Source: an uncultured Deinococcales bacterium (GTDB lineage Bacteria; Deinococcota; Deinococci; Deinococcales; JAAFIG01). Taken from it: a DNA stretch of 17,608 nucleotides. Positions 1-17,608 of this stretch are shown here, one piece after another. Within the stretch, counting starts at the first letter, position 1, and the number at the start of each line of letters is the position of its first letter. Below the pieces are notes generated by a model. That model did no database searches. It worked only from the letters and a program-made list of their open reading frames with translations, and had not been told where the DNA came from. Location of the stretch: positions 1 to 17,608 of the forward strand of contig CAXTTL010000090.1 of the NCBI GenBank assembly GCA_964247135.1. The letters run 5' to 3'. A program made the position numbers and the translations under genes.

Positions 1-377
1 TTTTCGTTTGCCCGTGGCGTTACAAATTCTGCCAAAAACAAGCCAAAAACCGCAAGCGCCGCCCCAAGAATCAATAAACTTCTCGTCAAACGGCTGAGGC
101 TGATGCCTCCAGCAAAACTTGCCAACAGTTCGTTGTCTTTGGCGAGTCGCCCAAACACCAAAAGCACGCTAAAAACGATGGCGAGTGGAAACGCCCGCAA
201 GGCAAATTCTGGAATTTGATAAATCAACCATTTGCCGGTCGCACTTGGGGGCAAAGCGCCCAGGTACTGCGCCCTGGCAATTAAACTTTGAAACAAAAAC
301 AATGCCACGTACAAACTGGTGCCGATCAAAAAGTTGGGAACGACTTCACGAAAAACGTACCATTCAAGCCGTTTCAC
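1..377 (-). CDS. LptF/LptG (YjgP/YjgQ) family permease, 5' part only (runs off window start)
   Basis: Not in the ORF track. Hand translation from GTG at 377 gives MKRLEWYVFREVVPNFLIGTSLYVALFLFQSLIARAQYLGALPPSATGKWLIYQIPEFALRAFPLAIVFSVLLVFGRLAKDNELLASFAGGISLSRL...EFVTPRANE, containing the family hallmark 'GRL..DNEL.A..AGGIS..RL'. Frame is open to base 1. Confidence 0.92.
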   Translation of the reverse strand, partial: MKRLEWYVFREVVPNFLIGTSLYVALFLFQSLIARAQYLGALPPSATGKWLIYQIPEFALRAFPLAIVFSVLLVFGRLAKDNELLASFAGGISLSRLTRSLLILGAALAVFGLFLAEFVTPRANE

Positions 378-422
378 AACTTCACCGAGAACCCTCGAGC
401 CAATGCGGACATGATCGGCATT

Positions 423-2378
423 TTAACGCAGTCTCAGACCGAAACTGAATTTGAAACCTGTGCCGGCGGTTGGATATCCAACCGCCAGATTTTGTTGGGT
501 AATGTACGCCCCAAAAACAAAACCAAAACTCGAGGAGTAGATGGTGATGCTCGAGCCGAATTCGCCGTATTGGGTGACGAAATCATAACTCACCAGCGGC
601 GTCAGGCTGAGAACAGGGGTTTGAAATGGAGTGTCAAAATTGTCCTTCAGCACATTGCCGTCGTAAAAATCGAGGTCAAAGCTGGCTCGCACGATTTGGT
701 TGTTAAATGGCTGAGGATTGTTCAGGAACACTTTTCGCAAGTCAACGACCAACGACAAACCCAGTTGAGGGTTGCGAAAATTGACGCCCTGAAAACCGAG
801 CGCAGGCGTTGACCCAACGGGTGGAGTGAAGTTCAAACCGATGCTCAGTGTGGTGGCTGGCGTGATCGCGTAACGGGCAAAGACATTCGTGCCAAACGCT
901 TCCAACCAAGAAATGCCGCTCGAGATCGAACCCCAGTTTTGTGCCGCAATTCTCACGGCGTACCTGGCATTGAAACTGGCGTTGGCATTCAGGACAAACA
1001 CGAAGTTTTCGGTTTGAAATGGGTACGCTGTGAAATCAATGCCTGCGGCGGCACTGAAGCCAAAATCTGAAATGCTCTTGCCCCAACTGATCGTGGGTGA
1101 AGCCCGCAAAAAAACTTGATTTTGAGCCTTTGCGATATCGCTGGGGGCTGGGGTCAATGTCTCTTGCCAGACATGCCCATACTCGAGTTTGGCGCGGTAA
1201 TTAAAAATGCCAAAATCGGTGTTTGAACTGCCCCCAACGGCGTATCCAACACGTTCATCGCCGCTCGAGCGACTGGGCGTCGCGGTTGCAATTCGGCGTC
1301 CGGTGTCAAAGTTAAAAGTTATCGTGAATCCAGTGTTGGGGTCACGCTCGAGAAAAAAGCGAAAACTGTTGTAAGTCGCCCCAATATCGTCTTGTCCGAC
1401 AAAGTACGTCCAGCCCTCTTTGACGCCGCGCATAAACAAAGTGAGGTTGGTGGCAGCCGTGCTCGAAAATAAATTGTTGCCAATCGCGGTCAACCTGCCC
1501 TCTTCGCCAGCCAAAATCCGTAAGTTGCTGACACCAAGGTTTAAACCAGCCCCAAAACTGAAGACCAGCGGAATCTCGAGTGGGTAGGCTGGGTCGTAGG
1601 TGTAGGTGTCCAAATGAATCGGAATTCCAAAAATCTTGATTTCAGTGTCCAATAAAATAAAAACGCCGGCATCATTTGAAATCGCTCGTTTGGCGCTGAA
1701 GGTCAGGTCGGAATTGCTCGAGACTCGTCCAAGCGAACCCGTGACGGTTTGGGCGGTGGCGGCACCATTTTGGATGGTGGCATCCGTGGCGTTGACCACA
1801 ATATTTGATGTGGAATTTCGCAGTCCCGTCACGACCAGGGTATCGTTTTTGAAAACGGCGGTGGTCGTGGCATAACGCTGCGTCACTTGTCCGCCCGCGC
1901 CAATTTTATCAATCACCGAATTCTCGAGACTTAAGTCTTGTCCCTTCAGCACGCCGCGCTGGGCTTTGATGTTGTAGGTTCCGCTTGGCAAGCCCGATTT
2001 CTTGTAAGAACCATCAATCGTCAAAACCAGCGTCTCGAGCGTAATGTTTTCCTCTTTGGCGACCACGTTTTGTACCGTGCCCCGAGCGCCACGGGCGCGA
2101 ATCTGGGCATTCTGGGCGCTTAAGGTGTTGGTCGCCTCCTCGAGCGTCAAAACCGGAGCTTCGAGCGCCCAGCCGTCCCGTTCAAAGCAACCGTTGATAA
2201 ATTTGGTGAAACCATTTTCGGAGTCCAAACTGGCGGCGCGAACGACACCGACGCCTTCGACGGTTAACTGGTCGCCGTCAGGTATTTCGGGACACAGGGC
2301 ATTGTCTTGCGCTCGAGCCAAGCTGGCAACACCAAGACAAGCTACAATGAGTGCGGATAGAAGTGTAGGACGAATCAC
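423..2378 (-). CDS. Outer-membrane beta-barrel protein, LptD-like (651 aa)
   Basis: Signal peptide (…ASLARA|Q), beta-rich N-terminal region, C-terminal amphipathic strands ending FKFSFGLRLR; lies between an LptA-like gene and lptF/G. Family call is inferred from architecture and context. Confidence 0.7.
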   Translation of the reverse strand: MIRPTLLSALIVACLGVASLARAQDNALCPEIPDGDQLTVEGVGVVRAASLDSENGFTKFINGCFERDGWALEAPVLTLEEATNTLSAQNAQIRARGARGTVQNVVAKEENITLETLVLTIDGSYKKSGLPSGTYNIKAQRGVLKGQDLSLENSVIDKIGAGGQVTQRYATTTAVFKNDTLVVTGLRNSTSNIVVNATDATIQNGAATAQTVTGSLGRVSSNSDLTFSAKRAISNDAGVFILLDTEIKIFGIPIHLDTYTYDPAYPLEIPLVFSFGAGLNLGVSNLRILAGEEGRLTAIGNNLFSSTAATNLTLFMRGVKEGWTYFVGQDDIGATYNSFRFFLERDPNTGFTITFNFDTGRRIATATPSRSSGDERVGYAVGGSSNTDFGIFNYRAKLEYGHVWQETLTPAPSDIAKAQNQVFLRASPTISWGKSISDFGFSAAAGIDFTAYPFQTENFVFVLNANASFNARYAVRIAAQNWGSISSGISWLEAFGTNVFARYAITPATTLSIGLNFTPPVGSTPALGFQGVNFRNPQLGLSLVVDLRKVFLNNPQPFNNQIVRASFDLDFYDGNVLKDNFDTPFQTPVLSLTPLVSYDFVTQYGEFGSSITIYSSSFGFVFGAYITQQNLAVGYPTAGTGFKFSFGLRLR

Positions 2379-2386
2379 GCGCCACT

Positions 2387-3019
2387 TTACCTGTTTTTCT
2401 CGAGTAAGCCAAGGTATCTGGCTTTGACCGCCTCAGGAATGGAATTTCCAGTTTTGGTGCTGATCGCCTTGCCGCCGCCATCAAACTTGATCCAGAGCAC
2501 CTGCCCCTCGAGTTTGGTTTTGCCTTTTTCCTGAAACAGGTATTTGCCCGACAAGAACGCCTCGTGGCTTTTACCGTCGATCACGGCGCTGTTGGCTTTG
2601 ATCACGGGGCTGCTCGCCGAAACCGCACCTGGCGAAACAATGATGCCCGCCTTCGGATAAGCCACCGCATTGGCGCTCGAGAGGGATTTGACTTCGCTGG
2701 TCGAAACGGAGAGCGGTCCAGACAATGCCATGCGGTCCGAGGCGATGTTCCAATCGATTTTTGAAGCCGCTATGCTTTGGGCTTGCGAGGTGATGATGGT
2801 CGCGTTGGTGGCATTTAAAAATGCACCATCTTTGACCTTGATGTACGAACCCTTGATCGTGATGCCGTTGACGTTATCGATGACTGTTCCGCCTTGGCTC
2901 ATGGTGGTCACGCCGTTTGCGTCGGTTTCTTGGTCGCCATTGGCTTGAATCACCAGACCGCCTTGGGCGAGGGCGACGCCAAGCAATAGACTCGAGATGG
3001 TTAAGATTCCTTTTTTCAC
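2387..3019 (-). CDS. Exported LptA/OstA-like beta-jellyroll protein (210 aa)
   Basis: Signal peptide (MKKGILTISSLLLGVALA|Q), short repeated beta strands (ITIKGSYIKV, SIAASKIDWNIASDRMALSG); first gene of the Lpt-like cluster. Confidence 0.6.
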   Translation of the reverse strand: MKKGILTISSLLLGVALAQGGLVIQANGDQETDANGVTTMSQGGTVIDNVNGITIKGSYIKVKDGAFLNATNATIITSQAQSIAASKIDWNIASDRMALSGPLSVSTSEVKSLSSANAVAYPKAGIIVSPGAVSASSPVIKANSAVIDGKSHEAFLSGKYLFQEKGKTKLEGQVLWIKFDGGGKAISTKTGNSIPEAVKARYLGLLEKNR

Positions 3020-3082
3020 GAGGTTATCTTAAACGCCGCTCGGTGTGTACCGTGAGGATTCGATAAATTCGAGATCAGGATT

Positions 3083-3961
3083 TTAGGCTCGAGCAACGAC
3101 GATTTGGGTGCTTGGAAGCGTAAAAGGCAGTGCGTTCTCGTCGATGATTTCAAAGGCGTCTCGCCATTTGTCTTTTAAGAAATCAATCGTGTAAACCTGC
3201 CGCGTTAGGGGCGTAAAACCAGTCTGGTGCAGTAACTTCTCGAGATCATCGCCGTTCGCCCAACCAAAAATTTCGCCGACCTCAATGTCCCAGTTGGTTG
3301 CGTAAAAATATTTGGTGGCAAATTCGTAAAAATGACTCGCCTGCATGGTGCACAAATTTCCTTGCAGCGCAAACTCGAGTTTGAATGGTCTGAAGTCGTC
3401 GCTGAAGCGCCAAAAAATTTCTTGGAGTGCAGGATTTTTAAACCGAATCTGTAAGAACTGCGGCTCGAGCCTGACCCCGTCTCGAATGATTAACCTGCCG
3501 CCAGGGAGAAGTAAACTTTTCGCCAAACCAAAAATTTGTTTTGCCGCCACCAACATGGGCGACACGCCAGCCTCGAAAAAACGCTCGGGACGCTCGAGGG
3601 CGAAGGTGGCAAATTCGTGCAGGGCGCTGCACAAGATGACGCTCGAGAATTTTGGTTCGGTCAGCTTTTCTGGATGCTTGCACAACTCAAAAATATCCTG
3701 ACGGTAAAAACGAACCCGATCCCCAAGCTGTTTGGCGGCGGTTCCAAGCAATTTGGCGCTCAGGTCAATGCCGACCAATTCCAAAGTTGGATCACGAAGC
3801 TGCAACAACTCGAGCACCGCCCCCGAACCACAACCCAGTTCGAGCACTCGGTTGCCGGTCACAAACTCGAGCATTTTGGCTTTATCGGGTTTGCTCATAG
3901 CCATGCCAGCCACGTATTCCGACAGCCCCACGGCGTCGTGAACGTCGGCGCGGGTGCTCAT
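3083..3961 (-). CDS. Class I SAM-dependent methyltransferase (292 aa)
   Basis: Motif I VLELGCGSG, acidic LVGIDLS, SALHEF, and LLPGGRLIIRDG; start overlaps the upstream stop (ATGA). Confidence 0.9.
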   Translation of the reverse strand: MSTRADVHDAVGLSEYVAGMAMSKPDKAKMLEFVTGNRVLELGCGSGAVLELLQLRDPTLELVGIDLSAKLLGTAAKQLGDRVRFYRQDIFELCKHPEKLTEPKFSSVILCSALHEFATFALERPERFFEAGVSPMLVAAKQIFGLAKSLLLPGGRLIIRDGVRLEPQFLQIRFKNPALQEIFWRFSDDFRPFKLEFALQGNLCTMQASHFYEFATKYFYATNWDIEVGEIFGWANGDDLEKLLHQTGFTPLTRQVYTIDFLKDKWRDAFEIIDENALPFTLPSTQIVVARA

Positions 3962-4380
3962 AAATCATCAAACTCGAGCACAAAACCGGCTTCGATCTCA
4001 GCTTGCATTTTCTCGAGTTGCGCTGGGGTTGGAATGCTCAAGGACACAAAAGACCAACGTGCGATGCCGTCGTTCTGGTCTTTGCTCGCCTCGAGTTTGA
4101 CCACATGAAAAATCATGTTGCTGCCAAGCAAGCGCATTTCGCCAGGTTTGTTCCATGCTGCCAGTTCGCGCTTCAAAACGCTGATTTCGCCGCGCACCAC
4201 CCAAATTCTTCCAGTGCCGATCAGGTCGTTCAAGCCCGCTGGCGGTTTTCGACGGCGAAATTGGTCGCTGACCGCCTGGTCTTTGGTGCGTTTGTCGCGG
4301 GTGATGCTGAGGATGATGGCTTCCAGCAAAGGAATGCTGGTGTCAGCACCTTGAATGCGTGGATGGATTAAGCTCATCAT
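3958..4380 (-). CDS. Hypothetical protein (140 aa), translationally coupled to the methyltransferase
   Basis: GGAG about 10 nt before ATG at 4380 (ORF track extends to 4440); ATGA overlap with the next gene; fills the gap after aroH. No family recognised. Confidence 0.65.
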   Translation of the reverse strand: MMSLIHPRIQGADTSIPLLEAIILSITRDKRTKDQAVSDQFRRRKPPAGLNDLIGTGRIWVVRGEISVLKRELAAWNKPGEMRLLGSNMIFHVVKLEASKDQNDGIARWSFVSLSIPTPAQLEKMQAEIEAGFVLEFDDL

Positions 4381-4468
4381 GATTGCTTCACTCCGTTCGA
4401 TAGTACGACACCCTCGAGGTTTCACGGTGTTCATTTGCACTTTTGGCTTTTAAAAGTACAAATCTTGC

Positions 4469-4870
4469 TTACTGTGCGCTCTCGAGGTCGGGTCGCAGCA
4501 CCACGGCATCTCGGAGGTAAACGTGCCTGATGTCCTGTTGTTTTTTATCGGTGTTAAGGTGCATCATCACCCGAATGGCGCGTTGCAAACGCCCAGGCAC
4601 CGGAATCTCGAGGGCATTCAAGAGCGGCACGAATTTCATGTTCAACCCGTTTCTTGCGGCTTCGGCGGGAAAGGCGGCGTTCAAATCTGGGGTCACGGTA
4701 AAAATGATGCTGCACAAACCCTCGAGTTCTGCCGCCGACGGCGCATGTGGGTGTTCGCAGACCGAATTTTGGGCGAGCATTTCGATCAACAGTTCTTTGG
4801 TGGCGTCAAAAATTGCCTCTGGAGTGTTTTCAATTACCGTGGTTGCACCGCGAATGCCTCGCATCATCAT
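4469..4870 (-). CDS. aroH: AroH-class chorismate mutase
   Basis: [50 protein letters not shown] match the AroH family. Three tandem ATGs make the exact start uncertain. Confidence 0.96.
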
Positions 4871-4879
4871 GATGTTGCG

Positions 4880-4888
4880 AGTCTAACA
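4880..4888 (-). promoter_or_regulatory. Extended -10 element (TG-n-TAGACT) for aroH
   Basis: Minus strand reads gaTGtTAGACTcgcaacatcATG; no Shine-Dalgarno present. Confidence 0.55.
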
Positions 4889-4943
4889 TCACTTCCCAAA
4901 AGACGCACCTGGCTTGTTTAGCCCGATGCCTCGCGCTCGGATT

Positions 4944-4972
4944 TTGGAATTCATTCCCAAATGAATTAGAAT
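4944..4972 (+). promoter_or_regulatory. Sigma70-type promoter of mmsA/iolA with overlapping inverted repeat
   Basis: TTGGAA (4944-4949), 17 bp, TAGAAT (4967-4972); AATTCATT-N4-AATGAATT at 4948-4967. Confidence 0.6.
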
Positions 4973-5042
4973 CGATCAGCAAATCGAAAGTAATTTGAGC
5001 GTCAATCGAAACCAGTCACATGTTTTTATTCAGGAGGAAGCC

Positions 5043-6575
5043 ATGACCCTTGCCGCCGAACCGACCACACCTGCCACCCAAACTGCCAAACGAATTCACC
5101 ATTGGATCGCCGGAAAACCGCACGCCTCAACCTCTGGGCGCAGCGCCCCCGTGTACAATCCTGCCAGCGGCGAGATTCAGGCAACCGTCGATCTGGCGAG
5201 TGTCGAGGAAATCAGCCATGCCATCGCCACAGCCAAAGCCGCCTCGGTTGGTTGGAGGGTAACACCGCTCGCCCGCCGTGCGGAAATCATGTTCAAATTC
5301 CGCGAATTGCTCGACGCAAACCGCCAAGAGCTGGCGCACATCATCAGCCTCGAGCACGGCAAAGTGCCCAGCGATGCGCTGGGCGAAATCGCCCGAGGCT
5401 TGGAAAACGTCGAATTCGCCTGCGGCGTGCCGCACCTCTTGAAGGGCGGTTTTTCCGAACAGGTTTCTCGAGGGGTCGATGTTTACAGCATCCGTCAACC
5501 TTTGGGCGTGGTGGCTGGCATCACGCCCTTTAACTTTCCGGCGATGGTGCCGCTCTGGATGATCGCCAACGCCGTGGCTTGCGGCAACGCCTTTGTCTTA
5601 AAACCATCCGAAAAAGACCCGAGCGCCAGTTTGTTCATTGCCGAACTCTTGAAACGCGCCGGTCTTCCCGACGGCGTTCTGACCGTGATTCACGGCGATA
5701 AACTCGCGGTCGATACGATTCTCGAGCATCCAGATATCGCCGCCGTTTCGTTTGTCGGCAGCACGCCAATTGCCAAATACATTTACGAGACCGGAACCAA
5801 GCACGGCAAGCGCGTTCAAGCCTTGGGCGGCGCGAAAAACCACATGTTGCTGCTGCCCGACGCCGATGTCGAGATGGCAGCCGACGCCGCCGTCAGTGCC
5901 GCCTACGGCTCGGCAGGCGAACGCTGCATGGCGATTTCGGTGGTGGTCGCGGTGGGCAACGTTGCCGACCCAATGATCGAAGCCTTGCGCGCCAGGTTGC
6001 CAAAAATCAACGTTGGACCTGGCACCGACAAAGACGCCGAAATGGGACCACTCATCACCCGCGAACACCGCGACAAGGTTGCGGGGTATCTCGAGAGTGG
6101 GAAGGCTCAAGGCGCGACCCTGGTGGTCGATGGTCGTGACGCCGACATTGCCAAGTCAGACGGTTTTTTCTTGGGTGTCAGCTTGATGGATCACGTCACC
6201 GCTGACATGGATTCGTACAAAGACGAGATTTTTGGACCCGTCTTGCAAGTCGTTCGCGTCAACACCTATGAAGAAGGCTTGAAACTCATCAATGACAATC
6301 AGTACGGCAATGGGACGGCAATCTTTACCAGGGACGGCGGCGCGGCGCGGCAATTCCAATTCGATGTCAACGTCGGCATGGTCGGCATCAACGTGCCAAT
6401 TCCGGTGCCAGTCTCCTATTACAGCTTTGGCGGTTGGAAAGCCAGCTTGTTCGGCGACACGCACATGTACGGACCCGAAGGCATTTTGTTTTACACCAGG
6501 GGTAAAGTCGTCAGCTCGAGGTGGCCCGACCCGAGCACCTCAAAAGTCGATTTGGGCTTTCCGCAAAACCGTTAA
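5043..6575 (+). CDS. mmsA: CoA-acylating (methyl)malonate-semialdehyde dehydrogenase (MmsA/IolA), 510 aa
   Basis: ITPFNFPAMVPLW, LKPSEKDP, SFVGSTPIA, KRVQALGGAKNH, catalytic GERCMA, EIFGPVL, FGGWKASLFGD. Start placed at ATG 5043 after AGGAGG. Confidence 0.96.
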   Translation: MTLAAEPTTPATQTAKRIHHWIAGKPHASTSGRSAPVYNPASGEIQATVDLASVEEISHAIATAKAASVGWRVTPLARRAEIMFKFRELLDANRQELAHIISLEHGKVPSDALGEIARGLENVEFACGVPHLLKGGFSEQVSRGVDVYSIRQPLGVVAGITPFNFPAMVPLWMIANAVACGNAFVLKPSEKDPSASLFIAELLKRAGLPDGVLTVIHGDKLAVDTILEHPDIAAVSFVGSTPIAKYIYETGTKHGKRVQALGGAKNHMLLLPDADVEMAADAAVSAAYGSAGERCMAISVVVAVGNVADPMIEALRARLPKINVGPGTDKDAEMGPLITREHRDKVAGYLESGKAQGATLVVDGRDADIAKSDGFFLGVSLMDHVTADMDSYKDEIFGPVLQVVRVNTYEEGLKLINDNQYGNGTAIFTRDGGAARQFQFDVNVGMVGINVPIPVPVSYYSFGGWKASLFGDTHMYGPEGILFYTRGKVVSSRWPDPSTSKVDLGFPQNR

Positions 6576-6587
6576 TGACCATAAAAC

Positions 6588-6612
6588 AACCCTCGAGATC
6601 AACTCGAGGGTT
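6588..6612. terminator. Hairpin between convergent genes, probable bidirectional terminator
   Basis: AACCCTCGAG-atcaa-CTCGAGGGTT with A-rich left and T-rich right flanks. Confidence 0.7.
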
Positions 6613-6628
6613 TAACTTTAAGTTGTTT

Positions 6629-7447
6629 TTAGTGCTTGAGCAATGCGCCCAAAATTCCGGTCAAAATCGCGCCAGTGCTCGAGGCTCCAGCATCGCGTTG
6701 ACCGTTGGGGTGGGTCATGTTCGCGCCCTGGTTGACCGCACCCAACAGCGACCCAAGAATGTCCGCCATGCCACCGCCCTGGGATTGCCCGCCGCCAAGA
6801 ACGCTCCCGAGGATGCCGCCCAAGCCGCCAGCTTGTGGTTGTTGCGCTTGTTGAGGGTGCTGTCCGCCGCCGAGCAACCCACCGACAATATTGCCCAGCG
6901 CTCCGCCGGCGCTACCGCTGCCTCCGCCGAGCAGACTGCCCAAAACGTTGCCGAGTGCACCGCCCCCACCGCCATTGCCCATCAGGCTGCCGAGAATGCC
7001 GCCCACGTCCAAGCCGCCAGGCGCCTGCTGACTGCCGCCTGTTAACATCCCCAAAAGTGGTCCCAGTGCGCCCAAAGGACCAACTTGATCGACCCCCCTG
7101 GTGTCATGGTTCGCAATGCCTGCGCCCAAGGCGCCGACAATTGGCGCGACATCTTGCGGGGTCAATTGATTTGGGTGCCCCTGATATTGTTGTGCCGCCT
7201 GCGTGAAGGCGTCCGAGTACGCTTTGGAGGTAAAACCGCTCGAGCTGTTCCCGATGGCTTGAGCCGCCGCTTGAAACTGCGTGCCCAGATCGGCATTCGG
7301 GTCGCTCGAGGTGGCTTGCTGCGCGGCTTGAAATTTTGCCAACACGTCCGAACCGTGGGTTGGATGGGCTGGATCGGCTGAATTGAGTGATTGTTCTTGG
7401 GTTTTAAGCTGGTCGACCACATTGCCAAGTACGTCTTGAAGTGTCAT
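6629..7447 (-). CDS. Gly-rich protein with degenerate DAK2/DhaL-like domain (272 aa)
   Basis: GGAAGGA before ATG 7447. SLNSADPAHPTHG, SSSGFTSKAYSDAF and RDAGASS resemble DhaL-type motifs, split by repeated LGGILGSLLGG segments. Confidence 0.65.
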   Translation of the reverse strand: MTLQDVLGNVVDQLKTQEQSLNSADPAHPTHGSDVLAKFQAAQQATSSDPNADLGTQFQAAAQAIGNSSSGFTSKAYSDAFTQAAQQYQGHPNQLTPQDVAPIVGALGAGIANHDTRGVDQVGPLGALGPLLGMLTGGSQQAPGGLDVGGILGSLMGNGGGGGALGNVLGSLLGGGSGSAGGALGNIVGGLLGGGQHPQQAQQPQAGGLGGILGSVLGGGQSQGGGMADILGSLLGAVNQGANMTHPNGQRDAGASSTGAILTGILGALLKH

Positions 7448-7667: not shown

Positions 7668-7697
7668 TTGACACGCTTTCAACCCTCGAGATAACCT
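7668..7697 (+). promoter_or_regulatory. Sigma70-type promoter of the sugar ABC operon
   Basis: TTGACA (7668-7673), 18 bp, TAACCT (7692-7697); flanked by inverted repeats at 7642-7659 and 7725-7749. Confidence 0.6.
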
Positions 7698-10246: not shown

Positions 10247-11118
10247 GCCTAGCCCAACCCGCCCAAGTCAACAAAGTCGTCCGCGAGAAAAAAATTCGCA
10301 AGGGCGTTCATCCCGCCGTGATTTTCATCGTCTGGTTTTTTGCGCTGTTGTGGCTCGTTCCAATCGTCGGCGCTTTCCTGACCGCCTTCAGAACCTTTGA
10401 TGACCTCAACGAATTTGGCTTGTTCAGCATTCCACACGTGTTCACACTCGATAACTTCACCAGGGCTTGGAATCAAGCCAACCTTGGGCAATTCATGCTC
10501 AACAGCTTCATCATCACCATCCCAAGCCTGACCGCCTGCGTTTTACTCTCGAGCATGTGCGCTTATGCCCTGGTGCGTTTCCGCTTTGCCCTCGCACGAC
10601 CCTTGTACATGATGTTCGTGGCGGGGTTGATGCTGCCATTTCAAATGCTCCTTCTACCCGTTTTTAAGCTCTCGAGCCAACTTCATATTTACAATACCTA
10701 CTGGTCACTGATTTTGATTCACACCGCGTTTCAACTTGGGTTTTGCAGCTTTGTGTTGCGCAACTTCATGCGCACCGTCCCGCCAAGTTTGTTTGAATCC
10801 GCCGTGATCGACGGCGCAACCGAATGGGTGATTTTCCGCCGCATCGCATTCCCGCTGATGCTACCTGGTCTTGCTGCACTCGCCACGCTCGAGTTCACCT
10901 GGATTTTCAATGATTTCCTCTGGGCGCTGGTACTCATTCAGGACACGCACCTGAAGCCAGTCACGACTGGTCTGGCGAACTTGCGCGGGCAGTTCACCAC
11001 CGATTACCCACTGATTGTCGCTGGAAGCCTTGTGGCGACCATTCCGACATTGATTGTGTTCTTTGGGTTGCAACGCTATTTTATTCAAGGTTTAACGGTT
11101 GGTGCGACCAAGGGTTAA
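10243..11118 (+). CDS. Carbohydrate ABC transporter permease (MalG/UgpE type)
   Basis: ATGA overlap; FTLDNF, AYALVRFRF, ESAVIDGA, WIFNDFLW, QRYFIQGLTVGATKG. Confidence 0.95.
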   Translation: MSLAQPAQVNKVVREKKIRKGVHPAVIFIVWFFALLWLVPIVGAFLTAFRTFDDLNEFGLFSIPHVFTLDNFTRAWNQANLGQFMLNSFIITIPSLTACVLLSSMCAYALVRFRFALARPLYMMFVAGLMLPFQMLLLPVFKLSSQLHIYNTYWSLILIHTAFQLGFCSFVLRNFMRTVPPSLFESAVIDGATEWVIFRRIAFPLMLPGLAALATLEFTWIFNDFLWALVLIQDTHLKPVTTGLANLRGQFTTDYPLIVAGSLVATIPTLIVFFGLQRYFIQGLTVGATKG

Positions 11119-11131
11119 ATTCTCGAGCATC

Positions 11132-11177
11132 AAAAAGAATCTCGAGCTTTGGATATTTCAAGGCTCGAGATTTACTT

Positions 11178-11178
<1 letters not shown>
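11132..11178. terminator. Bidirectional terminator between the ABC operon and tRNA-Gly
   Basis: Stem AATCTCGAGCTTT (11138-11150) / AAGGCTCGAGATT (11160-11172) with T-rich tails on both strands. Confidence 0.7.
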
Positions 11179-11253
<75 letters not shown>

Positions 11254-11263
11254 GATCTTCTCG

Positions 11264-11292
11264 AGTTTAGCGAGTTACGCGCTTTCGTGCAA
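11264..11292 (-). promoter_or_regulatory. Dedicated promoter for tRNA-Gly
   Basis: TTGCAC, 17 bp, TAAACT ending 10 nt before the tRNA. Confidence 0.7.
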
Positions 11293-11297
11293 GTATC

Positions 11298-11328
11298 AAA
11301 AAAAAGAATCTCGAGCGCAAACTCGAGA
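11298..11328 (-). terminator. Intrinsic terminator after tRNA-Tyr
   Basis: Minus strand TCTCGAGT-ttgc-GCTCGAGA followed by TTC and a T8 run. Confidence 0.75.
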
Positions 11329-11332
11329 AACG

Positions 11333-11417
11333 TGGTGGGCAGGGATGGATTCGAACCATCGTACGCTATGCGAACGGATTTACAGTCCGTCTCCTTTAAC
11401 CACTCGGACACCTACCC
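11333..11417 (-). tRNA. tRNA-Tyr (GTA)
   Basis: GGGTAGGTGTCCGAGTGGTTAAAGGAG-ACGGA-CTGTAAA-TCCGT, long variable arm, GGTTCGAATCC, ends CCA; 85 nt. Confidence 0.97.
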
Positions 11418-11448
11418 AAGGTGCAATTTCAAATCAAACACTAGCTCT

Positions 11449-11525
11449 TGGAGCCACCCATCGGAATCGAACCGACAACCTTCCGATTACAAATCGGGTG
11501 CTCTACCGGATTGAGCTAGAGTGGC
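11449..11525 (-). tRNA. tRNA-Thr (TGT)
   Basis: GCCACTCTAGCTCAATCCGGTAGAGCA-CCCGA-TTTGTAA-TCGGA…GGTTCGATTCC…GGGTGGCTCCA; 77 nt. Confidence 0.96.
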
Positions 11526-11567
11526 AAAAAACCGTTAAAACCCGAACAGTTTCCCGCTCGGTCTGAG

Positions 11568-11596
11568 ACTTTAACACCGTGGTTCGCACGTGTCAA
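11568..11596 (-). promoter_or_regulatory. Promoter of tRNA-Thr/tRNA-Tyr
   Basis: TTGACA, 17 bp, TAAAGT. Confidence 0.8.
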
Positions 11597-11606
11597 GCAT
11601 TTTTCA

Positions 11607-11635
11607 TTGACGGTTGGGAAAATCACTGATACACT
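11607..11635 (+). promoter_or_regulatory. Promoter of tRNA-Ser, back-to-back with the Thr-Tyr promoter
   Basis: TTGACG, 17 bp, TACACT. Confidence 0.8.
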
Positions 11636-11663
11636 CGGACGCGCTCGAGAATCGGGTTACACT

Positions 11664-11753
11664 GGAGAGGTGTCCGAGCGGTTTAAGGAGCACGCCTGGA
11701 AAGTGTGTGTATGGGAAACTGTACCGAGAGTTCGAATCTCTCCCTCTCCGCCA
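11664..11753 (+). tRNA. tRNA-Ser (GGA)
   Basis: GGAGAGGTGTCCGAGCGGTTTAAGGAG-CACGC-CTGGAAA-GTGTG, long variable arm, GTTCGAATC, CCTCTCCGCCA; 90 nt. Confidence 0.97.
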
Positions 11754-11779
11754 AAAATGTTGTACAGCACGGCATTTTG

Positions 11780-11823
11780 AAATCAGACCCTCGAGTGTAA
11801 TTTGTCTCGAGGGTCTGATTTTT
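11780..11823 (+). terminator. Intrinsic terminator after tRNA-Ser
   Basis: 16-bp stem AAATCAGACCCTCGAG / CTCGAGGGTCTGATTT running into a T tract. Confidence 0.85.
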
Positions 11824-11962
11824 GCTGTTTTCGGGAGTTTTTCGGGAGATAGAAATTTTGTCCAATATTTTTAACTCGAGTTTGCCTGAAAATCAAAGAC
11901 GTTGGCATCTCGAGATGCCGTGATTCCCAAAATTGCTATTTTGGGACTGCGTTAAAGGTAGT

Positions 11963-12653
11963 GTGATTAACCTTTCTATTTTTACGCGAGAAACCTTCAC
12001 GATGCCTTTTGAGTACGCTCAAGGTTTAAAACGTGGAATGCAGTTGTATCAAGGCAGAACATGTGGTAATGTGAAGTATGACTTCGAGGGGTTGGCGCTT
12101 ACGTGAACTGGCTGTGAAATTTAATTCACAGCATTATGCGCGTGACGATAGATTGTTGCGCCACAGTGATCATTGTGGCGGTTTTGCATCTGAGCACCCT
12201 GGATTTTATGATTTTGAAGAAGATATTTTTTCAGCGACTCCTAATGAATCTCCAGAAATAAATGATCCTATGCGCGATAAGCAGGAAAAATTTAGACTTC
12301 GGGTGTTCCCTGATGTTTTTTAAAAGAAAAAGGGTTATAGGCGTTTAAATAGAAAGAGATTAACAGCTTGGGCAAATTATCTTTGGAAAGAAGAAAGCGC
12401 TAGTTTTAAAAAAAATATTGTTTCAAAATCTTTGGGAGATAGTGATCCCAAAGATTTCGGTCTAAATCTTGCTGAATGGTTTGGCAATAATTTTATTTTG
12501 ATCTTGAATATGTTCGCGTCATTTATTCTTTTTCGTAAAATTTACGTTGATGAACGGGTGACTAACTTTGAGTTTGAAGTAAATACACAACCCATTTATT
12601 CGCTATTTGAGATTCACCCACAAATACAATCAACTTGCGCTCCTAACGTCTGA
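11963..12653 (+). pseudogene. AT-rich hypothetical gene interrupted by a nonsense codon and probably a frameshift
   Basis: ORFs 12078-12323 and 12432-12653 share a frame separated only by TAA at 12321-12323. An upstream ORF, GTG 11963 to TGA 12106, overlaps in another frame. Confidence 0.55.
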
Positions 12654-12719
12654 GAACACACGGTTATCGCCTTGTGTTTCTCACCTCGAGTATTTATTGC
12701 TCGAGTGTACGTTAGGAGC
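12639..12719 (+). promoter_or_regulatory. Structured 5' leader (three-way junction) hiding the RBS of the HTH gene
   Basis: 11-bp perfect closing stem GCTCCTAACGT/ACGTTAGGAGC enclosing two hairpins; TACAAT at 12625-12630 just upstream. Confidence 0.6.
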
Positions 12720-12725
12720 TTTTAA

Positions 12726-12956
12726 TTGAATAGTCCATTAAATCCGCAAGTTATCACGGTTAAAGCTTACTTTGGTGTGTCAGACGTTGCAGAACGTTGG
12801 GGGGTGCATCAAAACTTCGTTTACAATTTGATTAAGGGTGGTGAGCTTCCTTGCCTTCACCTTGGCAACCCCGGAACAAAACGCCCTGTAATTCGCATCC
12901 CACTTATTTCACTTGAGGCTTGGGAAGCAAATCAACTCACCAAAGGGCAAAAATAA
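12726..12956 (+). CDS. Excisionase/AlpA-like winged HTH protein (HTH_17 type), 76 aa
   Basis: YFGVSDVAERWGVHQNFVYNLIKGGELPCLHLG…IRIPLISLEAW; AGGAG 7 nt before TTG. Confidence 0.88.
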   Translation: MNSPLNPQVITVKAYFGVSDVAERWGVHQNFVYNLIKGGELPCLHLGNPGTKRPVIRIPLISLEAWEANQLTKGQK

Positions 12957-13102
12957 TGCTCCGTGCTGTTAACACGGAGTTCTCGAGTACGGGGCACTTG
13001 ATTGTACCATCTCGAGCGTTAAGGCTTGTCCCATTTGGGACAGGCAAGGTTCAAATCCTCGTTTTTAGCTTGCTAAATTTGGAGGTACAACATGGCGCGT
13101 GA
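12956..13102 (+). CDS. Putative 48-aa leader/coupling peptide
   Basis: ATG overlaps the HTH stop (TAATG); frame stays open across the whole spacer and ends 11 nt inside the primase gene. Confidence 0.4.
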   Translation: MLRAVNTEFSSTGHLIVPSRALRLVPFGTGKVQILVFSLLNLEVQHGA

Positions 13103-15410
13103 TGATTTGCGTGATGCGTTGCAGTCCGACGCTAACAGCATCCCCGCACTTCTCGAGAGTTTTGGAGTTGATACTTCTCGCTTGACTACAAATGGTGGTG
13201 TGATGCTTGACCCGCGTCCAGGGCATGAAGAAAGCAATCCTAGCTTTTCGGTATTTCGAGGAACTGATGGTGTGTGGTTGTACAAACGTCACGGCGATGA
13301 TGGCGACAGTGGAAACGCATTTGATTTAGTAAAAGCATTTAACAAAACGTCCGGTGAGGCGGCGCAAACGCTGAAAGATCGCGCTGGGGGTAACACCGTG
13401 TCACACGCCCCGCGTTCTCTTTCGCTTGCAAAAACTGTACCGAAACCCAAGCCAAAACCCATTTACAAACCCGTGAGTCCCACACTCTCTGTCAAGCTCG
13501 AGAAAGCACAGCACGCTTTGGCAGGACTCGAAACCTTGCCCGACTGCTTGACCGCTCGAGGTTTTGATGCTGCGATGTGTGAGGTTTACGGTTTGGGACT
13601 CGAGAATGACGCGGTACTCATCCCAATTTATCGCGGCGCTGACTTGGTGCAAATCAAACAACGCAATCCAAACAGAGAACAACCGCGTTACAAATATCTC
13701 GAGCCAGGGCATGGCGCACCCGCATGGTTAAGCCCTGATTATGCAAACCCGACAACTCGAGCCGTGCTGATTGTTGAGGGCGAATTCAACGGACACGCGG
13801 CACACGCGGCGCTCGAGAATGCGGGTTTGAGCCTTGCCGTTCAGGGTGTCGGAGGTGTGAAAAATCAATTGCACCTCGAGCAGCTTTCAGGACGTGATGT
13901 TTTCGTGTACGCCGATGGTGACGAACCAGGAGGCAAAGCGGCACAAAAATGGGCAGCACTGGCACAAGAAAACGGTGCAAGCCAAGTCAAGATTCTCGAG
14001 CCACTGCCAGAACTCCAAGACTTTTGTGATTTGCTCGGCACGAGCGGCGCTGATGGTCTTAGCACATGGTTACAAAACGCTTTTGTTGAAGCACAAACAT
14101 TTGAACCTGATTCGTTCGAGGACAATAGTCTTAATTCGGGCGCTGATGAAAACGGATTCCCAGAACTCGCAGAAGAGGCATTGTATGGACTGGCTGGCGA
14201 TGTTGTCCGAGCGATTGAACCAACAACAGAAGCACACCGCGCCGCGCTTCTATTTTCGTTTTTCGTAGCTGTAGGAATTGCACTTGGAACAAAACCACAT
14301 TGGAAAATTAGCGGCGTAATGCACACTTTGCGTTTGTTTATCGTTCTTATCGGATTGAGTGGCAAGGGTCGCAAAGGCACGTCTTGGGGTGCTTTACGCG
14401 GTGTTACCGAAACCGCATTTGGTGATGATTTTTATGCCGAACACGTCACAACTGGACTGAGTAGCGGTGAAGGTTTGATTTATGCCGTGCGTGATGCCGT
14501 GCAAAAGCCTATGACCAGAGACGGCAAGGTTGAACTGCAAATCGTTGATGAGGGCGTTGCCGATAAACGCTTGGTCGTTCTCGAGTCTGAGTTTGGGCGC
14601 GTGTTGAAAGTCATGAACCGTGAAGGTAGCACCTTGTCACCAATTATTCGGCAAGCTTGGGAAATTGGTGCAAAAGATAATTTGCGCGTAATGACGAAAA
14701 ATTCAACCACGGCAACGGGCGCACACGTTGGAATTGTTGGACACTGCACCCGTGATGAGTTGTTAAGGTATCTCGAGGATACCGAAACGGCAAATGGTTT
14801 TGCGAATCGTTTCCTTTGGGTGATGACCAAACGCGCTCGAGTCTTGCCTTTCGGGGGAGAACCGAACCAGCACGTAATGAACAAGCTTGGTGAGCGCCTG
14901 AAAGCCGTGGCGATGTGGCTCGAAGGTACAGATGGTGTCCTGTACTGGGGCGAACAAACAAAACCTCTTTGGGCGAGTATCTACCCTGACTTAAGTGAAG
15001 GCTCGAGCGGTTTAAGCGGTGCGGTTACATCTCGAGCCGAAAGTTATGTCATGCGCCTTGCGGGATTATACGCGGTGTTAGACAAGTCACTCGAGGTCAA
15101 ACCCGAACACCTCACAGCGGCACAGGCATCTTGGGAATACTGCGAAGAGTCGGTGTTTAACATCTTTGGAAGGCGCACGGGCGATGTTGTCGCAGATGCG
15201 ATTCTGGAAGCACTGAAAGCACATGCCGATAAACGCCTGACCAAGACCGAAATTTCAGCTTTGTTTCAACGAAACCAAAGCGCGGGACAGATTGATCGTG
15301 CTACCCAGGTACTTGTCCGAGATGGCAAAGCCCGAATGACAAAAGGTGAGTCTAAGAACGGCGGTAAAGCACCTCAGATTTTGGAATTGCTGGGTATGCA
15401 ATATGGGTAA
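13092..15410 (+). CDS. Primase-helicase fusion: degenerate CHC2-like domain, Toprim, DUF3987/YfjI-like ATPase (772 aa)
   Basis: GGAGG RBS; PGHEESNPSFSV; Toprim VLIVEGE…YADGDEPG…DFCD; P-loop GLSGKGRKGTS, SSGEGLI, LESEFG, NGFANRFLW; possible C-terminal winged helix. Confidence 0.88.
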   Translation: MARDDLRDALQSDANSIPALLESFGVDTSRLTTNGGVMLDPRPGHEESNPSFSVFRGTDGVWLYKRHGDDGDSGNAFDLVKAFNKTSGEAAQTLKDRAGGNTVSHAPRSLSLAKTVPKPKPKPIYKPVSPTLSVKLEKAQHALAGLETLPDCLTARGFDAAMCEVYGLGLENDAVLIPIYRGADLVQIKQRNPNREQPRYKYLEPGHGAPAWLSPDYANPTTRAVLIVEGEFNGHAAHAALENAGLSLAVQGVGGVKNQLHLEQLSGRDVFVYADGDEPGGKAAQKWAALAQENGASQVKILEPLPELQDFCDLLGTSGADGLSTWLQNAFVEAQTFEPDSFEDNSLNSGADENGFPELAEEALYGLAGDVVRAIEPTTEAHRAALLFSFFVAVGIALGTKPHWKISGVMHTLRLFIVLIGLSGKGRKGTSWGALRGVTETAFGDDFYAEHVTTGLSSGEGLIYAVRDAVQKPMTRDGKVELQIVDEGVADKRLVVLESEFGRVLKVMNREGSTLSPIIRQAWEIGAKDNLRVMTKNSTTATGAHVGIVGHCTRDELLRYLEDTETANGFANRFLWVMTKRARVLPFGGEPNQHVMNKLGERLKAVAMWLEGTDGVLYWGEQTKPLWASIYPDLSEGSSGLSGAVTSRAESYVMRLAGLYAVLDKSLEVKPEHLTAAQASWEYCEESVFNIFGRRTGDVVADAILEALKAHADKRLTKTEISALFQRNQSAGQIDRATQVLVRDGKARMTKGESKNGGKAPQILELLGMQYG

Positions 15411-15969
15411 GTTGCTCGAGCGTATCAAAGCTCAATTGATGACCCGTTACGAAAAAGACGAAATTGACGAAATAACCGTCAATCAAAAGGCAAACACTTT
15501 TGCTGAGGTTACGAAATTGGATTCACGCCCTCCAAACCCTGTAGTACCTGAACCTAATTTCGTAAACCCTCAAAACTTGGGGAGTGTTTCAGGCACAGCT
15601 ATTTCGTCACATTCGTTAAATTCGCTCAATGAACGTCAGAGCATTCCTCAAACGCTCGAGCTTCCCTTAAGTGAGTTTGATTCCAAGGTTATTGTTCCAT
15701 CTGTTTTTACATCCCCTTGGACTGCATTCCGTGACAGCGTGGAGCGTGTCTGGGGCTTACTCCAAGCCAAAGGGACACGCACCGTTCACTTGGTCGGTGA
15801 CGGTCAACGTGTTGCAACGCACTTCACGGCTCGAGATGCAAACCAATTGAAGGCGCTGGCTGACTCAGGCGAGAAGGCATACCCAAGCATCAGGACTTTA
15901 GGGGTTATCCCAGTCTTGCCCGATATGGTCATGCTCGAGTTCACCACGCAAAGCCAAGCACAAGCCTAA
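15403..15969 (+). CDS. Hypothetical protein (188 aa) overlapping the iteron array
   Basis: ATG 15403 overlaps the primase stop by 8 nt. No family recognised. Confidence 0.6.
   Translation: MGKLLERIKAQLMTRYEKDEIDEITVNQKANTFAEVTKLDSRPPNPVVPEPNFVNPQNLGSVSGTAISSHSLNSLNERQSIPQTLELPLSEFDSKVIVPSVFTSPWTAFRDSVERVWGLLQAKGTRTVHLVGDGQRVATHFTARDANQLKALADSGEKAYPSIRTLGVIPVLPDMVMLEFTTQSQAQA
15449..15625. repeat. Convergent iteron array, putative replication origin
   Basis: ACGAAA at 15449, 15458, 15467, 15511; inverted copies TTTCGT 15558 and 15602, ATTCGT 15611, ATTCGC 15620. Confidence 0.75.
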
Positions 15970-15980
15970 CCCTGTCCGTA

Positions 15981-16011
15981 TTGGCACACCGTCACCGTGA
16001 CGGTGTGCCAA
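15981..16011. repeat. Perfect 31-bp palindrome
   Basis: TTGGCACACCGTCAC-C-GTGACGGTGTGCCAA; 15-bp arms, intergenic, no T tract. Confidence 0.9.
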
Positions 16012-16047
16012 GCACCCAAGACCCCCACTCAATCAAAGGAACAAATC

Positions 16048-16458
16048 ATGTCATTGATAAGAACACCCAACTTAGACGTTCGCAGAATCATTGGTGAAGG
16101 TAGAAACTTCTTTTTGGTCTTGAAGATTCGGTTTCACGTCTGGGCGTACAAACGCAAACTCAACTCGAGACTTCAAACCCAGAAACGTTCCAAGCAGAAA
16201 CTAGCGGATCGTTGGCAGTCTCTCGAGTTAGACCAAAAGCAACTTGTGCCTTGCTTAACGGGGCTTGCTTTGACTGAACATATTCAAGTTTTACATGACT
16301 TTGAATGCAGCAATCAAGACTTAGAAGCAGGATTGCTCGAGCAGCTTGCTCGAATGGACTGGTTGCTTTGCGACATGAAAAACAAACCGTGTTCAGACCG
16401 TGCCGAACTCGAGCAACTGCTTGAAATGATCCTCAAGATTCGGGCGGTAGGTTCTTGA
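16048..16458 (+). CDS. Hypothetical helical/coiled-coil protein (136 aa)
   Basis: AAAGGA 7 nt before ATG 16048; Leu/Glu/Gln-rich C-terminal half. Confidence 0.6.
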   Translation: MSLIRTPNLDVRRIIGEGRNFFLVLKIRFHVWAYKRKLNSRLQTQKRSKQKLADRWQSLELDQKQLVPCLTGLALTEHIQVLHDFECSNQDLEAGLLEQLARMDWLLCDMKNKPCSDRAELEQLLEMILKIRAVGS

Positions 16459-16724
16459 GTCTCGAGCAGACCATCAATAACATTCACGGGTTGCTGTTAA
16501 CCCTCGAGCGGTGCGCCCGTGTTGGCTTTCAGAACGACTTAGAACCCGCTCGAGCCTTAACGGTAGTGTCTGAACTCCGTATTGATTTTGGTTTGATGCT
16601 TGGGTGCGTTCCAGAGTTCACAGCCGAACAATTGATTGAGTTCCATATTGATCTTGCAGAGTTTCTAACAAGACTCGAGGCTCGAGTATCACCCTTGCTC
16701 ACGGTTAAGTCTTGCATCGCTTGA
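16455..16724 (+). CDS. Hypothetical helical protein (89 aa)
   Basis: TTGA start/stop overlap with the previous gene; amphipathic helical pattern. Confidence 0.55.
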   Translation: MSLEQTINNIHGLLLTLERCARVGFQNDLEPARALTVVSELRIDFGLMLGCVPEFTAEQLIEFHIDLAEFLTRLEARVSPLLTVKSCIA

Positions 16725-16811
16725 CGCTCGAGCATAGCAAGATTCTCAATCTTGGTTTATGTCGCAATTTCGCAGAAACCAAACAAAGTGAATCAAAAGA
16801 ATTGAGGTTAC

Positions 16812-17165
16812 ATGTCAAACAAACAACGTTTAGAACGTACAACTCCCCTGAATTGGGGCGGTGTACGGGAAAAGAGTGGTAGAAGAAAGTTAGCCCCTTC
16901 CTCGAGCGTCCGAATTGACCGTGAATTGCTCAGGCAAGTTAGGCGGTTCATGCGGTTTAACGGCAATCCTCGAGAGTTGGTTGAATGCGCCGTGAGGAAG
17001 GAATTACTCGAGCGTCAAACGGCTCGAGATGCACACCTCCGAGTTGTGGCACTCGGAATGTACGAGCGTAACAAAGCAAACGGGCGAGCATCCTCAGCAT
17101 TAGTGCGGAAGCTTGTCGCCGATGCGCAACGTGAGGATACCCCCCAGCATAAAAACGCGATTTAA
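16812..17165 (+). CDS. Putative ribbon-helix-helix DNA-binding protein (117 aa)
   Basis: WGGVREKSGR motif then SVRIDRELLRQVRRF…PRELVECAVRKELL (strand-helix-helix); GAGG before ATG. Confidence 0.65.
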   Translation: MSNKQRLERTTPLNWGGVREKSGRRKLAPSSSVRIDRELLRQVRRFMRFNGNPRELVECAVRKELLERQTARDAHLRVVALGMYERNKANGRASSALVRKLVADAQREDTPQHKNAI

Positions 17166-17233
17166 CTGGGTCGGGGAGCAGGGTATGAGTATCCAACCGC
17201 TCACCGAATTTTTAGAATTTTTGAAACTTTAGG

Positions 17234-17275
17234 CTCGAGGTTGTCCAGACAGTGGACAACCTCGAGTTATTTTTT
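17234..17275 (+). terminator. Intrinsic terminator after the RHH gene
   Basis: 14-bp stem CTCGAGGTTGTCCA / TGGACAACCTCGAG then TTATTTTTT. Confidence 0.8.
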
Positions 17276-17419
17276 GCTGGAAAGACCCACCCCTCTAGGT
17301 AGAAGCTATCCAGTTGCTGTCAGAATTTTTAGAGTTTTTGGTTTGAAATTTTTAGGCTCCCCGAGTACAAAACCGTTACTCGAGACGGTAAAAACTACGT
17401 TCAACGGTATTATCATGCG

Positions 17420-17608
17420 GTGCAAACCAACACCGCGCTCGAGCAACACCCATCAGGTGAAATTCCATCTGTACCACTTCCCGCAGGGTTTATTTCACTG
17501 GCGCAACACGCCACCCTAAACACGTATGACGAAAACCTCAACCAAATTTTCAGAGCTTTGCGCGTGTTTAATCCTGACAAACTCGAGCACTTAACCAAAC
17601 CGGAACTT
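17420..17608 (+). CDS. Possible hypothetical protein, 5' part (runs off window end)
   Basis: Frame open from 17333 to the end. First canonical start is GTG 17420, 6 nt after TATTAT; translates MQTNTALEQHPSGEIPSVPLPAGFISLAQHATLNTYDENLNQIFRALRVFNPDKLEHLTKPEL. Confidence 0.4.
   Translation, partial: MQTNTALEQHPSGEIPSVPLPAGFISLAQHATLNTYDENLNQIFRALRVFNPDKLEHLTKPEL

Follow-up and report, generated by a model that had tools for sequence, protein, structure and literature searches.

Highly iterated palindromes (HIPs) have been a puzzle of cyanobacterial genomics for three decades and were lately linked to methylation-dependent natural transformation. The class is that of Elhai (2015) and Xu et al. 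(2018). Here we describe the word CTCGAG, the XhoI/PaeR7I site, as a lineage-wide, actively maintained HIP of an uncultured family of Deinococcales. The starting point was a 17,608-base stretch of DNA (hereafter the window), which is the complete contig C90 of the genome under study, G000; its assembly comprises 5,091,702 bases in 386 contigs and is 84% complete. Other G numbers denote comparison genomes.

The closest described kind is the HIP class, as set out in Elhai 2015 (PMC4390886) and in a second article (PMC5861425). Like cyanobacterial HIP1 (GCGATCGC), CTCGAG is a short palindrome in gross genome-wide excess that lies both within and between genes, is conserved above the background level and shapes coding sequence; unlike HIP1, it belongs to another phylum, is a different word and has six letters instead of eight. 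According to Elhai 2015, HIPs are at least 75% GC and occur 1,000–2,000 times per Mb (PMC4390886), whereas CTCGAG is 67% GC and reaches ∼6,700 per Mb. HIP1 is described as quasi-periodic, and as correlating with type IV secretion and competence proteins, in another source (PMC13756078); CTCGAG, in contrast, is spaced near-randomly, and no matching orphan methylase such as that of HIP1 was found in the Deinococcales family. GGCGCC, the alternate HIP of Calothrix PCC 7103, resembles CTCGAG in being a hexameric palindrome iterated in a single lineage. It is, however, 100% GC and comes with two methylases able to modify it (PMC4390886), while for the less GC-rich CTCGAG none is recognisable.

Restriction–modification systems of the XhoI/PaeR7I type share the CTCGAG site, and XhoI-family nucleases with methylase partners exist in four genomes of the order; yet no such nuclease was found in G000, nor any close homologue of the partner methylases in 19 genomes of the family. 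Moreover, the sites of restriction systems resident in G000 are purged, whereas CTCGAG is enriched. The DNA uptake sequences (DUS) of Neisseria and the uptake signal sequences (USS) of Pasteurellaceae are non-palindromic words of 9–12 letters that occur about once per kb, and for them uptake bias has been demonstrated. They share with CTCGAG a lineage-specific word in genic and intergenic DNA, enrichment just after genes, altered peptide content and, on the reading proposed below, accumulation by drive; CTCGAG differs in being a palindromic hexamer alone, at 6.7/kb. Very-short-patch repair raises the number of CCWGG sites in Escherichia coli, a case of sequence-specific repair bias that lifts the count of a methylase target. 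In G000, however, no Vsr-family gene and no position-specific C/T signature was found, and the effect is far larger. In the literature that we searched, subscription journals and REBASE not being covered, no account of a hyper-abundant CTCGAG in any bacterium came up; closest to the subject were a CpG motif of the honey-bee (PMC3903499) and an m5C CTCGAG methylase of Halorubrum (PMC8112702).

A first-pass annotation of the window, made without database searches, had hand-counted about 107 CTCGAG sites and put the excess at about 25-fold. The exact count proved to be 107 (6.08/kb), and the computed excess was ∼24- to 32-fold; in 200 dinucleotide-preserving shuffles of the window the mean was 3.31 and the maximum 11, so that 107 was never reached. 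The uneven local pattern described in that annotation was also recovered, with 42 sites in 12685–17608, none in 9263–10548 or 11909–12685, and four in the gene of a solute-binding protein. In the whole of G000, CTCGAG is by far the commonest hexamer: we counted 33,925 copies (6.66/kb or ∼6,660 per Mb), where base composition alone would yield 1,371 and dinucleotide composition 963. Restriction of the excess to one contig would have undone the annotation's proposal; all 297 contigs of at least 5 kb carry the word, at 2.6–10.5/kb (median 6.8). A Markov model of order 4, the maximal order, expects 27,444 copies and gives an observed/expected ratio of just 1.24, but this ratio is uninformative because the pentamers CTCGA and TCGAG mostly belong to CTCGAG itself. 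The flanks show no more than a mild preference, for G at −1 (39% of sites) and for C at +6 (38%), and the hexamer itself is therefore the word. Nor is it the centre of longer palindromes or hairpins: the two bases directly flanking a site complement each other in 21% of cases, where 27.5% would be expected.

Several controls showed that a directional force acts on this DNA word itself, site by site, and not on codon or dipeptide usage. Genes were called de novo in G000 from open reading frames (ORFs) and codon log-odds, with N-containing genes dropped, which gave 4,598 genes covering 84.5% of the genome. CTCGAG was denser in non-coding (7.24/kb) than in coding DNA (6.55/kb), nine sites that lie across gene borders being left out of both classes. 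Shuffling synonymous codons within each gene, so that the protein and the codon usage of the gene are kept, produced 4,000 ± 57 sites (five replicates) as compared with 28,097 observed, and shuffling codon order produced 1,691. An excess of approximately sevenfold thus survives the codon-preserving shuffle under which, according to the first-pass annotation, a spurious signal should vanish.

The reading frame of the genic sites revealed what this does to proteins. Leu-Glu is the reading of 17,613 sites (63%), with 6,331 in frame 2 and 4,153 in frame 1. The dipeptide Leu-Glu is found 22,929 times in G000 proteins where amino-acid frequencies predict 9,757 (2.35-fold), and the reverse dipeptide Glu-Leu, with 9,859 occurrences, is not enriched. 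Protein sequences have been bent toward Leu-Glu by the CTCGAG pressure, and the synonymous opportunities for the word are saturated, 77% of all Leu-Glu (17,613 of 22,929) being encoded by CTCGAG. The aldehyde dehydrogenase gene of the window (4995..6575, plus strand) provides an example: its product has four Leu-Glu, three of them written CTCGAG, as compared with a median of one in 75 distant orthologues (78 of 80 loci aligned over at least 450 residues, and three close loci from Deinococcales metagenome-assembled genomes, MAGs, were left out). In these orthologues Leu-Glu is not the most frequent dipeptide at two of the three positions coded by CTCGAG, residue 119 being most often Ala-Glu (43 of 75) and residue 366 most often Val-Gly (16) or Leu-Asp (13). 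At residue 136 (window 5400–5405), where 42 of the 75 distant orthologues have Leu-Glu, the gene reads TTGGAA; old Leu-Glu positions are therefore not always converted to CTCGAG.

To follow the fate of individual sites, we compared the window with its orthologous stretches in five genomes of the same genus, which are 84–87% identical overall (best BLAST segments were tiled, and segments with more than 20% overlap to earlier ones skipped). In each congener 72–81% of the CTCGAG sites of the window were kept, against 38–48% of all other hexamers, and per-base identity was 0.91–0.95 inside CTCGAG but 0.83–0.86 outside. The first-pass annotation had asked for a comparison with orthologues at synonymous positions. 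There the word is again the better conserved, with 83–94% identity inside CTCGAG versus 60–68% outside at four-fold degenerate third positions; such silent-site conservation shows a present-day force on the word. Single-letter variants in the orthologues are mainly transitions, with similar numbers at each of the three symmetric positions (15, 16 and 13), and the one-off variants of CTCGAG throughout G000 are likewise mainly transitions at all three; in neither set did any position have an excess of C-to-T change. There is turnover as well, in that 10 of the 31 positions aligned across all six genomes have CTCGAG in every one. Sites are lost mainly by transitions and continually restored.

The sites behave independently of each other. 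Inter-site distances are near-exponential, with a mean of 148, a median of 108 (103 expected) and a coefficient of variation (CV) of 0.96; counts per 1-kb window have a variance/mean ratio of 1.12, the sole period is 3 bases, and no helical, regular or quasi-periodic spacing was found among the distances tested. Two sites are never 6 bases apart in G000 because that arrangement would create GAGCTC, of which the genome has 0 copies. Around genes the profile is flat at 6–7/kb, except for a peak of 12.6/kb over the 25 bases that directly follow the stop codon. Density rises to ∼13/kb under weak constraint, that is, in these 25 bases and in the spacers between tRNA genes. The tRNA cluster of the window (11119..11914, with tRNA-Gly, tRNA-Tyr and tRNA-Thr on the minus strand and tRNA-Ser on the plus strand at 11664–11753) carries 11 sites (13.8/kb), all in spacers and none within a tRNA, and all 11 are conserved in G003.

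Uneven density elsewhere results from protein composition and foreign DNA. Among the 32 longest CTCGAG-free gaps of G000, 22 have a GC content below 0.47 (genome 0.527). Genes from five low-GC gaps matched, in Pfam, a Wzy-like ligase, STAND-like and AAA ATPases, a reverse-transcriptase–trypsin fusion and an S41 peptidase, with one lacking a match, and they look like accessory genes. The fusion (G000:C4:51606–53234), a reverse-transcriptase domain joined to a trypsin-like protease within a CTCGAG-free island of 35% GC, is possibly a defence-type reverse transcriptase. In contrast, three of four normal-GC gaps sampled are genes of solute-binding proteins. The 17 homologues of these binding proteins in G000 average 2.52 sites per kb, because the proteins are poor in Glu, Arg and Leu-Glu (Leu-Glu 0.51% versus 1.61%); nonetheless, 33 of their 38 Leu-Glu are written CTCGAG. 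The window follows suit. Its solute-binding protein gene (7785..9086, plus strand) has the four sites mentioned above (3.07/kb), and the ABC permease gene downstream (9284..10246, plus strand), in whose product Glu, Arg and Ser make up 10% of the residues and Leu-Glu does not occur, has none; the orthologous stretch holds 0–1 site in each of the five congeners.

The first-pass annotation had further claimed that a mobile element in the window carries the word at least as densely as the host and had concluded that the two have long been associated; both points were supported. The region past tRNA-Ser is a probable integrative element, judged by its gene content and its borders. Its AT-rich left end (11915..12684; 770 bases, 38% GC) has no CTCGAG. 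The remainder (12685..17608, plus strand) holds 42 sites (8.53/kb), as compared with 54 sites (4.86/kb) in the adjoining host genes (1..11118), and encodes an excisionase-like ORF (12726–12956), a primase/helicase (13092–15410) and small ORFs, all on the plus strand; no integrase lies within contig C90, and no relatives of the primase were found in IMG/VR. Homology with G001, G002 and G004 ends at 11756–11757, just beyond the end of tRNA-Ser. G003, on the other hand, continues at 81–94% identity (81% over 528 alignable bases of the AT-rich left end) and shares the element at 90%, so that the element occupies the tRNA-Ser site in two of the six genomes compared. Of the element's sites that could be aligned with G003, 33 of 39 are kept; this conservation, together with the density, supports long residence in the lineage. 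Collectively, protein constraint sets a limit to the force on CTCGAG, which is not seen in newly acquired DNA and does act on a resident element.

Within the order the trait forms a gradient, being strongest in this family and weaker in several others. All 19 family genomes, one of them a single contig, carry 12,028–35,442 copies (4.3–6.8/kb), and in all 19 GAGCTC is scarce (0–568 copies). Stretches around the same gene gave 4.8–6.1/kb in four MAG loci labelled 'Deinococcales bacterium' that have different isolate prefixes, 0–0.41/kb in five Deinococcus loci, and a median of 0.7/kb in 68 other loci, mostly from other phyla. In a wider sample of 150 further genomes of the phylum, for which our group labels are guesses from genome size, 77 Deinococcus-like genomes (g7) had 26–1,010 copies, at or under expectation, and 27 Thermus-like genomes (g9) had 1,455–2,803 copies (about 0.8–1.2/kb), with the mirror word GAGCTC equally common. 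Higher numbers were reached in 20 Meiothermus-sized genomes (g13, g18 and g19; 99–100% complete), with 3,336–12,522 copies (1.4–3.4/kb), and in 12 genomes of family f2 (2,224–10,639 copies). In one member of f2, G027 (genus g12; 100% complete), 2,645 of 3,131 CTCGAG sites read as the octamer GCTCGAGC.

Our preferred reading, held tentatively and at a shade below an even chance, is that CTCGAG is a HIP-like word maintained by a sequence-specific drive. A sequence-specific protein would read the hexamer and bias recombination or repair toward perfect CTCGAG, resulting in molecular drive, perhaps during DNA exchange among members of the clade as has been argued for HIP1. Such a drive would act site by site on any long-resident DNA, mobile elements included, and would have left recent AT-rich islands without CTCGAG; in this family it would apparently work without a dedicated methylase of the XhoI/PaeR7I type. 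Of the 19 family genomes, 18 encode ComEC and 18 encode DprA, and exchange by transformation is therefore possible, which lends weak support.

Other observations weigh against this drive. Having ComEC and DprA is not specific to the family, for 10 and 11, respectively, of 14 control genomes have them too. No reader protein was identified, and the mechanism is therefore inferred. The high density on the element is easier to explain by a force within the cell than by one driven by uptake. Selection on individual sites would account for the silent-site conservation no less well than biased conversion, and all the conservation tests come from a single window of 17.6 kb and from five genomes that are related and not independent. 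Finally, methylase specificity is not readable from sequence, G000 is 84% complete, and a 798-aa type I-like M protein, a 1,499-aa Eco57I-type protein and two MmeI-like enzymes remain as candidates.

A bolder version would make CTCGAG a methylation-independent genomic self-barcode. The reader would recognise the unmodified hexamer and tilt recombination, repair or defence toward the cell's own DNA, and its drive would be powerful enough to have altered roughly one codon pair in fifty and to impose the mark on resident mobile elements. We regard this as conceivable, though unlikely. Were it true, the weaker and octameric versions of the word (1.4–3.4/kb in the Meiothermus-sized genomes; GCTCGAGC in G027) would represent different stages or forms of one system.

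Among the alternatives, the one that fares best is the classical HIP model, in which an orphan methyltransferase modifies either CTCGAG or the TCGA at its centre and methylation-dependent repair or transformation creates and keeps the word; the enzyme would then be unrecognisable by homology or encoded in the missing 16% of the assembly. Cyanobacterial precedent argues for it: according to Elhai 2015 every HIP has a matching methylase (PMC4390886), and according to a recent preprint HIP1 aids transformation solely when methylated (bioRxiv 10.1101/2024.09.10.611283). The first-pass annotation, too, had proposed a HIP-like system, for which the repair, uptake and nucleoid roles that it listed are all conceivable, and suggested a search for a CTCGAG-specific methyltransferase and its partners. 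Its iterated palindrome stands, being genome-wide, proof against shuffling, conserved at silent sites and present in all 19 family genomes, whereas the methylase link found no support in the following searches.

Profile searches of G000 for methylases (PF07669, PF12950, PF01555, PF00145, PF02384 and PF02086) uncovered enzymes that adjoin MvaI/BcnI-, NotI-, NgoPII-, Eco29kI- and SacI-like nucleases. Every methylase that could be placed adjoins a nuclease family whose named site is avoided, sites having been assigned from the family names: in 5.09 Mb we counted 380 GGCC, 11 CCGCGG, 15 CAGCTG and 0 GAGCTC, and the relatives of GAGCTC are nearly absent as well (GGGCTC 4, GAGCCC 6, GGGCCC 1). Extreme avoidance extends to many palindromes of the genome, CGTACG (5) and GGATCC (7) among them. 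That G000 holds methylases of unassigned specificity speaks for the classical model; these are the two MmeI-like enzymes, the 798-aa M protein and the 1,499-aa Eco57I-type protein. A further enzyme is M.PvuII-like (E 1.5e-149 to PDB 1boo), and none of the methylases from the profile searches could be tied to CTCGAG. Homologues of the 798-aa protein are ∼60% identical across several phyla and thus uninformative on specificity. The 1,499-aa protein, whose contig has many small ORFs, has homologues in G007 alone among loci of five CTCGAG-rich genomes, and a look through G011, G019, G027, G009 and G007 found no methylase shared among CTCGAG-rich genomes.

Two further candidates were considered and set aside. 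A D12-class adenine methylase gene overlaps the gene of a distant SacI-like nuclease (G000:C320:742–4293); GAGCTC is the half-site swap of CTCGAG. Within the families searched this enzyme is the sole methylase common to G000 and the closed family genome G011, but as a universal driver it fails, because outside G000 it turned up in no more than 6 of the other 18 genomes of the family. The second, P0121 (G000:C4:28580–29977, minus strand), is a 466-aa methylase-like protein with a SAM-binding motif before an SPPY motif, and its gene adjoins proS. Its distribution is patchy, with stop codons in G005 and G012 and remnants in G001 and G002.

Searches starting from the nuclease led to the same outcome. 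No XhoI-family nuclease (PF04555) was detected in G000, the one family genome that this search covered; the model itself works in the order, where 4 of 151 genomes proved to encode such nucleases, one in broken form. Likewise, profile searches of G000 found no TaqI_C domain and no Vsr (PF03852). The partners of the XhoI-family nucleases in the order are of two unrelated types, a beta-class enzyme of the TTHA0409 family (E 3.9e-111 to PDB 2zie) and a gamma-class Eco57I+TaqI_C enzyme. The beta N6_N4 methylase accompanies the nuclease in G021, G141 and G033, the genes being convergent in G021 and G141; in G031 stop codons interrupt the nuclease gene, and the gamma enzyme is encoded upstream of it. 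That these methylases circulate in the order favours the classical model, but in the 19 family genomes the best matches to either type are partial and no closer than 26–47% identity, and the closed G011 has no match at all. The outcome for a CTCGAG-specific methylase thus leans negative.

Outside the family, too, excess and methylase part company. Thermus-like genomes with the beta methylase (19 of 27) have 1,455–2,803 copies of CTCGAG and the eight without it 1,696–2,294, while the g13, g18 and g19 genomes mostly lack both types (beta 0 of 20; gamma, at 50% identity or more, 5 of 20). Presence of either type does not track the excess. As far as homology reaches, the excess therefore does not require a cognate methylase, nor is one enough to produce it. 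The lack of a position-specific C-to-T excess, which 5-methylcytosine would give, also counts against the model. One genome does fit the pattern described by Elhai: G027 combines the hyper-abundant octamer with an orphan-looking TTHA0409-like methylase that is 63% identical to the XhoI-linked ones, is adjoined by an asparaginase gene and had no XhoI nuclease that we could find. On balance, we judge the classical model unlikely, if still a serious contender.

The CTCGAG sites could instead be functional binding sites whose number is under selection, read by some abundant protein of the nucleoid, of repair or of defence, for instance as a self-mark that spares the cell's own DNA and that mobile elements would copy. 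A palindrome suits a dimeric reader, and conservation at silent positions, the greater density of the resident element than of adjoining host genes and the unmarked state of foreign-looking AT-rich islands are all in keeping with such a role; the extreme purging of other palindromes also testifies to strong nuclease pressure. However, selection on number sits poorly with the near-random spacing, which shows no density homeostasis (variance/mean 1.12, CV 0.96), and with native genes that have gone without a site over more than 1.3 kb for as long as the genus has existed. As no candidate protein was found either, we consider this explanation doubtful.

It is very improbable that CTCGAG is a by-product of codon, dipeptide or base-composition history, such as descent from a GC-rich ancestor that favoured CTC and GAG codons. 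The 63% of coding sites in the Leu-Glu frame would agree with it, as would the Thermus-like genomes, whose ∼0.8–1.2/kb with GAGCTC equally common is what codon usage predicts; but in G000 non-coding DNA is the denser, the sevenfold excess over protein- and codon-usage-keeping shuffles persists, Glu-Leu is not enriched, GAGCTC has 0 copies, and the silent-site conservation indicates a force acting today. An artefact of cloning, assembly or binning, for which nothing was found, can be practically dismissed, because the sites lie inside genes and are conserved at orthologous positions, the four closest named loci, from MAGs with different isolate prefixes, carry 4.8–6.1/kb, and all 19 family genomes, one in a single contig, carry the word.

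A separate case, from another phylum, shows that HIPs are general. It is three to six times denser than the cyanobacterial HIPs, is built on another word and comes without a cognate methylase that could be recognised, and this contrast could separate what is essential (a sequence-specific reader and drive) from what is perhaps incidental (methylation and periodicity). If the genomes with 1.4–3.4/kb come from isolates, methylomes, transformation assays and pull-downs are feasible. In these genomes CTCGAG is also a sensitive marker of native versus recently imported DNA, and it distorts the codon, dipeptide and k-mer statistics on which binning and gene prediction rely.

The host genes of the window comprise, besides those described above, an LptF/G fragment and genes for a class I methyltransferase, chorismate mutase and a second permease; the binding protein is of the ABC sugar type. 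Four host ORFs of 160–651 aa, all on the minus strand (423–2378, 2387–3019, 3958–4440 and 6629–7537), matched nothing in Pfam or PHROG at the thresholds applied. At the 3′ end of tRNA-Gly (window 11168–11186), G003 and G005 contain ∼5.5 kb and ∼13 kb, respectively, of extra DNA that separates the permease genes from the tRNA cluster, and G005 repeats the first 55 bases of the tRNA-Gly junction, which looks like a second integration hot spot.

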